A stretch of DNA of 64,000 nucleotides from assembly GCA_951406725.2 (NCBI GenBank), contig OX597814.1, positions 7,874,001 to 7,938,000 on the forward strand. Reading direction: 5' to 3'. Positions within the stretch are counted from its first letter, which is position 1, and every line of letters starts with the position of its first letter. This document shows, one piece after another, positions 25,571 to 25,953 of the stretch. The notes beneath the pieces were generated by a model. It ran no database searches. It was given only the letters and a program-made list of their open reading frames with translations, and was not told the origin of the DNA. The stretch comes from Octopus vulgaris (lineage: Eukaryota). Position numbers and translations under genes: made by a program.

Positions 25571-25953
25571 TAATAGTTATCGCCATACTTATATAGCAGT
25601 CTTATAGATATAAGACTAAAGCTGTCGCTGATTAGCTCCAAGAGGCCACCGCCTCTAGCTAGCTATTTGACACACAACCTGCGTCCATTATAAACCTTCG
25701 AACAGGGACAGTCAGCAGCGACACCTGCTGGGTCTGACTACGCTGCATTGATAAGGGGCAAATACCCTGAAACATGTCTGCAGATGTCTGACCAGCAAGG
25801 GGAAGCGGCTGACTTCCCCTGTTTGAAGGTTTATAATGGACGCAGGTTGTGTGTCAAATAGCTAGCTTGAGGCAGTGGCCTCTTGGAGCTAATCAGCGAC
25901 AGCTTTAGTCTTATATCTATAAGACTGCCATATTAGTATGGCGATAACTATTA
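25571..25953. repeat. 383-bp fold-back (inverted-repeat) element with ~149-bp arms
   Basis: 25571-25719 is the reverse complement of 25805-25953 with ~8 mismatches by manual comparison; abuts (TA)n on the left. Confidence 0.95.
25743..25783 (+). ncRNA. Minimal type I hammerhead ribozyme (U3-A8 core variant)
   Basis: CTGCA-TTGATAA-GGGG-CAAATA-CCCT-GAA-AC-AT-GT-C-TGCAG: stem I CTGCA/TGCAG, stem II GGGG/CCCT, palindromic stem III ACATGT, GUC cleavage triplet ending at 25778. Confidence 0.8.

Follow-up and report, generated by a model that had tools for sequence, protein, structure and literature searches.

A ribozyme-centred hairpin in an Octopus vulgaris intron, very probably a Penelope-like insertion of a non-LTR retrozyme

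In the text of Cervera and de la Pena (2020, PMC7229834), metazoan non-LTR retrozymes appear as non-coding tandem repeats of 150-450 bp (~350-390 bp in mussels) with a GC content below 50%, a type I hammerhead ribozyme in each unit, target duplications longer than 4 bp and hammerhead-bearing Penelope-like elements (PLEs) alongside. A link between PLEs and retrozymes was proposed there from co-occurrence and shared ribozymes, is repeated in PMC8969392 and has been argued from pLTR homology in Xenopus (10.64898/2026.07.22.740005). PLE insertions have been described as carrying an adjacent inverted 5'-truncated copy and a one-sided tail at (TA)n targets (Craig 2021, PMC8557442; Arkhipova 2013, PMC3846280), and the origin of this inverted, one-tailed arrangement is called open in PMC8557442. 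According to Frangieh 2024 (PMC11167929), a PLE protein nicks each of the two target strands in vitro and extends them, and two internal RNA start sites define the tail. The Schistosoma PLE Cercyon (Cervera 2014, PMC4209133) bears a hammerhead in which U3-A8 replaces C3-G8 and whose short palindromic helix III is suited to dimers.

The octopus family treated here has all of these retrozyme traits and both features of the Cercyon hammerhead, and it shares with the EN+ PLE insertions described in these sources a junction overlap or palindrome and a target duplication, which in the PLEs is ~10 bp. It differs from the retrozymes of PMC7229834 in its U3-A8 core and its mostly short, head-to-head insertions with two fixed ends; from EN+ PLEs in having no ORF, a tail of 63-65 nt rather than 30-40 nt, monomer repeats in place of pLTR-ORF-pLTR and a tail that is one-sided in 37/40 inversions; and from Cercyon in extending stem I over a long, conserved stretch and in the sequence of its loop II, CAA(A/C)(T/A)A, as in canonical retrozyme hammerheads. 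The likeness to the retrozymes is drawn from genome sequence, and the circular RNA is theirs. Neither "inverted" nor "octopus" appears in the main text of PMC7229834. A literature search whose scope excluded most subscription papers, Repbase/Dfam and supplements returned no octopus retrozyme and no PLE twin-priming model, and the family may already be catalogued in repeat databases. The novelty put forward in a preliminary description of this DNA holds only for the octopus family; the non-LTR retrozyme class and the inverted, tailed PLE architecture are both published.

The window, that is, the whole 64,000-nt stretch of DNA analysed, contains a hairpin that we hold very probably to be a PLE-type insertion of a non-LTR retrozyme. 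The whole explanation, in which a PLE enzyme primed both target strands and left head-to-head, 5'-truncated retrozyme pieces, is likely as well. The features concerned are as follows.

23996..24030, plus strand: host PARP14-like exon upstream of the intron (splice join; reading frame matches P0004/P0007)
25530..25572, no strand: (TA)n target tract at the left end (sequence)
25571..25707, minus strand: short arm, an inverted 5'-truncated retrozyme copy, monomer ~229-365 (BLAST of monomer L020:1138-1500)
25696..25719, no strand: inversion junction, microhomology from the monomer's own extended stem I (overlap of two alignments)
25696..25953, plus strand: long arm, a sense 5'-truncated retrozyme copy, monomer 108-365 (95% identical to the reference monomer)
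25736..25788, plus strand: type I hammerhead with U3-A8 core, predicted cleavage after C25778 (sequence; covariation across subfamilies)
25954..25971, plus strand: first 18 nt of the ~63-nt tail toward site B (matches monomer positions 1-18)
25970..27520, minus strand: adjoining LINE-derived repeat (RVT_1 match; RT fragment 26831-27364)
37713..37910, plus strand: host PARP14-like exon (RRM-like) downstream of the intron (82-91% identical to Octopus proteins)

The long-armed fold-back reported in the preliminary description was recovered. Its inverted arms (25571-25738 and 25786-25953) are 168 nt long and 90% complementary, and the hairpin folds with an MFE of -294.5 kcal/mol (z -31.5 against 100 shuffles). 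The element had been ended at 25953, which is too short, since it runs 18 nt further, into the tail at 25954-25971. The copy consists, in order, of the short arm, whose 3' end is site A and points outward into the TA tract, the junction, with 12 nt of perfect and ~24 nt of imperfect microhomology, the long arm, the 18 nt of tail and the LINE-derived repeat, so that each arm holds less than one monomer unit. The remainder of the ~63-nt tail was looked for across the window and was not found; the LINE-derived repeat, of which the window holds more copies at 6796 and 20071, seems to have been brought next to the tail by a later deletion. Nine mismatches occur over 150 nt of the window copy's arms, and the outer 125 nt hold four, none of them compensated; in this copy, the arm covariation that had been suggested as a check is not seen, and nothing points to selection acting on the rod. 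The window copy is a member of an older subfamily and probably a decaying intronic passenger.

The repeat unit is a 365-nt non-coding monomer (GC 0.43; longest ATG ORF 52-64 aa; 0 tRNA genes by ARAGORN at three loci), which also forms head-to-tail arrays of up to 5.5 units (L160). A query of the Octopus genome with the window element produced 2,802 candidate places, and 40 of these were scored. Exact matches numbered 516 (ribozyme 19-mer), 2,852 (A-end 20-mer) and 3,339 (B-end 21-mer), with reversed controls at 0 in each case and 8 of the first 30 B-end loci belonging to a different family. From these exact-motif counts, and allowing for at least two A motifs in each inverted insertion, we infer more than 1,000 insertions of the monomer in this genome, which bears out the multi-copy nature expected of the element. 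At least four subfamilies exist, one of which differs by just 0.3% between loci and so was recently active. Units within an array differ by 0.2% at L159 and 0.0% at L270, compared with 2.3% and 1.9% against other loci; at L033 and L253, identity inside the array is not above identity between loci. An apparent longer element extending beyond the monomer proved to be an older subfamily of the same retrozyme (222 matches). In the loci read, the monomer runs on into itself or into flanking DNA and never into an RT frame, and no RT plus GIY-YIG frame was found in, or continuous with, the element. The earlier view of a non-autonomous, ribozyme-bearing element consequently stands, with the hammerhead lying in the repeat unit.

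The type I hammerhead is where the preliminary description had placed it, with C17 at 25778; its core is a U3-A8 variant. Stem I pairs CTGCA (25743-47) with TGCAG (25779-83), the core TTGATAA (25748-54) reads U3-U-G-A-U-A8-A, stem II with its CAAATA loop occupies 25755-68, GAAA lies at 25769-72, and stem III is the palindrome ACATGT (25772-77). The proposed Infernal check against Rfam gave no hammerhead, either at gathering score or at E<=10. Conservation of the core, also proposed as a check, is strong: TTGA-N-AA occurs in 138/146 family motif occurrences, and position 7 alone varies. In the same 146 motifs, stem III is ACATGT, ACGCGT or ACTAGT, each self-complementary, and pair 10.1-11.1 is A-U in 87, G-C in 36 and G.U in 22, the last being the state of the window copy. 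A natural hairpin at monomer positions 108-240 extends stem I; within the window's long arm, this ribozyme-bearing hairpin spans 25696-25828, and its helices are conserved in 26 copies. In these hand-picked copies, 92.6% of cells pair and two-sided changes fill 45 cells compared with 16.7 after shuffling (0/500 shuffles). The pairs with a two-sided change number six, which is not above shuffles (351/500), and, since the copies are related, the covariation reflects few events. Taken together, the sequences indicate that the ribozyme was under selection within the retrozyme family.

Folding suggests that the ribozyme works in pairs. In the five natural dimers obtained from eight loci, the double hammerhead is predicted to be more stable than two open monomers by 3.5-6.2 kcal/mol, and it is the MFE structure in three of the five. 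The window copy holds one sense ribozyme only, and its 2-bp stem III, which needs a partner, cannot form alone. Its stem II has a predicted pairing of 0.15, compared with at least 0.97 in four of five other copies, a drop caused by the A-to-G change at 10.1. With no second sense ribozyme, no stem III and a weak stem II, weak cleavage of the pre-mRNA is predicted, and the window copy would cleave poorly alone. The long nicked dsRNA envisaged earlier as the product of cleavage is thus unlikely.

The insertion architecture was studied on contig C1 in loci taken in positional order (L058-087, L152-211 and L242-281), which had been chosen by exact motif. These gave 83 segments, 51 head-to-head, 0 tail-to-tail and 32 in a single orientation, so all inverted segments (51/51) are head-to-head. 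Outward-pointing 3' ends fall at one of two sites, A or B, which lie 65 nt apart, in 119/134 cases, and (TA)4 lies within 20 nt of 97 of these 119, in agreement with the TA targeting that had been anticipated. Furthermore, after two duplicates were dropped and nine inversions with a damaged end were left out, 37 of the 40 inversions with both ends at A or B pair one A end with one B end (binomial P ~1e-8 against 0.5). The exceptions are one B/B and two A/A, both A/A copies having a partial or diverged tail. The B/B case, L072, is the sole inversion in the sample tailed at both ends, and strict A/B pairing fails there. In the 37 A/B copies, the longer arm bears the tail in 13 and the shorter arm in 22, the arms being equal in 2, and in 7 of them the B arm is the tail alone. 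Target duplications of 11-14 bp were found at seven non-TA sites (L010, L012, L016, L068, L209, L250 and L279). Inversion, a one-sided tail, (TA)n targets and these duplications make the PLE mobilisation raised in the preliminary description the most likely route.

The position of the ribozyme at the apex calls for a separate account. Among the 38 position-ordered inversions, A-to-A spans range from 41 to 675 nt and the inversion point differs between copies; the ribozyme lies within 6 nt of the centre in three, two of which (L256 and L270) have arms of 44 and 28 nt, which leaves the window copy as the only one with the ribozyme at the apex of long arms. A genome-wide junction pattern in which 0-30 nt could separate the inverted arm from the 5' strand of the hairpin matched 12 copies, 10 of which have spacers of 16-19 nt, in register with the natural hairpin. 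Ribozyme-centred copies thus number at least 10-15, roughly 1% of the family. Because the centred copies vary in subfamily, crossover point and tail side (tail on the short arm in five hairpin-junction copies and on the long arm in five), the shape is, as far as sequence comparison can tell, a recurrent microhomology join at stem I and not a lineage. In subfamilies ~84% identical to the reference, negative junction overlaps are alignment gaps and not measures of microhomology. Two unlinked loci, L285 and L288, have the same short off-register junction with tails on opposite arms, which marks a second, weaker junction hotspot.

The route that we propose would begin with transcription of tandem copies, paired hammerheads cutting the transcript to monomers. 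By analogy with other retrozymes, a host ligase would probably circularise these. A PLE enzyme would then nick both strands of AT-rich DNA and prime two cDNAs, one from A and one from B, probably on a single RNA and with strand displacement; the two cDNAs would stop at variable points and join through short complementarity. In the window copy, the join would have formed over the 12-24 nt that are complementary within the ribozyme's own stem I, which would bring the ribozyme to the apex. The priming step has a counterpart in the L1 retrotransposon, where primers from both target strands give a head-to-head inversion with a microhomology join (twin priming) and the 3' end is not duplicated. Unlike in L1, the primers in the octopus family start 65 nt apart, hence the overlapping arms. 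Given the chemistry reported in PMC11167929, one A and one B end per insertion are most simply read as one cDNA per strand, and we somewhat favour such two-site twin priming. We infer the transcription, cleavage, circularisation and enzyme from retrozymes elsewhere (PMC7229834). The 28 rare variants common to both arms in 48 copies, together with the near-identical units of L159 and L270, are consistent with one, possibly circular, template; gene conversion could also produce shared arm variants and identical array units.

The rare shared variants are equally what would be expected if the inversion arose by self-priming, a reading already raised for PLE palindromic junctions in PMC3846280, in which an internal hairpin lets a single cDNA (or an antisense template) fold back and prime its own copying, while the endonuclease trims one end and so leaves the tail on one side. 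The in-register junctions on the natural hairpin, 10 out of 12, also speak for it. However, snap-back from a B-primed cDNA predicts the tail on the longer arm, which is contradicted by the shorter arm carrying it in 22 of 37 A/B copies and by the even split among the hairpin-junction copies; moreover, a tail-first snap-back cannot give a B arm made of the tail alone, and 7/37 copies have arms without any overlap. We therefore judge self-priming unlikely. Every insertion signature is PLE-like, and this would also fit if the monomer were the non-coding pseudo-LTR of an autonomous PLE yet to be found and the insertions were truncated PLE ends. Xenopus retrozymes resemble pLTRs according to 10.64898/2026.07.22.740005, and the loci read here are samples only. 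Against this stand the arrays of up to 5.5 units, the longest ATG ORF of 52-64 aa and a monomer that never runs into an RT frame in the loci read, which make such an origin distinctly improbable.

Two further readings take the hairpin itself as the element. One, close to what the preliminary description had raised as a possibility, is a 383-nt rod that moves as a unit, or is retro-copied as a rod-like ribozyme RNA, and descends from a fold-back master copy. The rod's very stable fold and the existence of at least 10-15 copies nearly alike in their ribozyme-centred shape agree with this, but those copies are ~1% of the family and differ in subfamily, crossover point and tail side, the arm mismatches are uncompensated, and A-to-A spans across the family range over 41-675 nt; the unit is the 365-nt monomer. 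This reading is already largely refuted, and we give it very little weight. Long inverted arms, the absence of an ORF and the TA flank would also suit the capture of a ribozyme by a MITE or foldback DNA transposon whose terminal inverted repeats are long. The unequal ends (A and B) refute this, and single-orientation 5'-truncated copies, head-to-tail arrays, variable centres and 11-14-bp duplications are likewise at odds with it, so that it is scarcely credible. PLE-type insertion of a retrozyme is the reading that we retain.

A driver for such insertions was sought among the PLEs of the same genome. A young Neptune-like PLE with intact 781-aa frames occurs at L148:1164-3506 (C16) and 15 more places, with an upstream frame of ~330-380 aa and, ~65 nt from the 3' end of the element, a U3-A8 hammerhead. 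Like the retrozyme, this PLE ends at (TA)n, with a tail of ~38 nt compared with 63-65 nt, and its ribozyme combines the U3-A8 core with the ACATGT palindrome, also as in the retrozyme. The U3-A8 core pattern gave 2,265 matches (control 4), the first 100 all being of retrozyme or PLE type. Beyond the ribozyme core, the pseudo-LTR of this PLE and the monomer have no homology; mobilisation in trans would still be compatible with this. A comparison of the monomer with 30 GIY-YIG loci revealed no homologous autonomous PLE (best E 0.099), apart from a nested copy at L106, and further PLE families are present in the Octopus genome. The 781-aa Neptune-like family is therefore named as driver only tentatively. 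More speculatively, the retrozyme family might be a circular-RNA parasite of this PLE, and its insertions might preserve a record of PLE integration, with a dimeric enzyme priming both target strands from two sites 65 nt apart on one RNA circle, strand displacement, rolling replication giving the arrays, and closure by annealing of the two cDNAs, for which stem I would act as a hotspot. If true, this would be direct genomic evidence of retrozymes riding on PLEs, would explain the inverted-plus-tail structure and would offer a 365-nt minimal substrate for reconstitution.

The significance of these observations rests mostly with the family-level footprint and less with the window copy. A retrozyme showing the full PLE integration footprint supports the published hypothesis of PLE mobilisation, and near-obligate A/B pairing with the tail on either arm gives a model that the in vitro system of PMC11167929 could put to the test.

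The host of the window copy is a PARP14-like gene, in whose intron 24031-37712 the ribozyme lies in sense. The splice from 24030 to 37713, with GT..AG borders, is present in contigs of runs X5 and X9, and the Octopus matches of exon 37713..37910 are named PARP14/PARP10-like or uncharacterized. The sense, intronic placement given in the preliminary description is thus confirmed; it may not be the first coding intron, as the reading frame of paralog models P0004 and P0007 continues upstream of exon 23996-24030. Contigs of three presumed-RNA runs span the monomer and the region of the window copy; their ends, strand and level are unreadable, and intronic copies would give the same coverage. An A>G difference at 25833 in the contigs was considered as RNA editing and rejected, as it is a subfamily variant present in genomic copies.

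Other repeats were also noted. A second family, AT-rich, TA-targeted and ~1.3 kb long, has 2,385 candidates (L152-154, L165, L169-171, L180 and L212-241) and combines head-to-head inversions and a tail with a C3-G8 hammerhead whose stem II is very long. Thirty loci and three 7-kb stretches yielded no RT frame linked to this family. It has a 21-mer in common with retrozyme site B, which may be chance. At L266:995-1558, a retrozyme copy is nested in a head-to-head insertion of this second family, with a 13-nt duplication recognised by eye. Within the window, positions 40198-42040 hold a decayed PLE remnant with a GIY-YIG-like frame on the minus strand (40198-40782; recognised by eye, no Pfam match) and, on the plus strand, a fragment of an RT that matches the 781-aa Neptune-like protein (tblastn E 1e-11). 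A 1.2-kb element occurs in two inverted copies, 87-97% alike, at 27566-28772 and 55577-56781, with frames that by eye resemble a Tc1-type transposase. Finally, positions 1-3100 form a perfect tandem array of a 239-nt unit, with ~13 copies at 100% identity and a strong strand skew.
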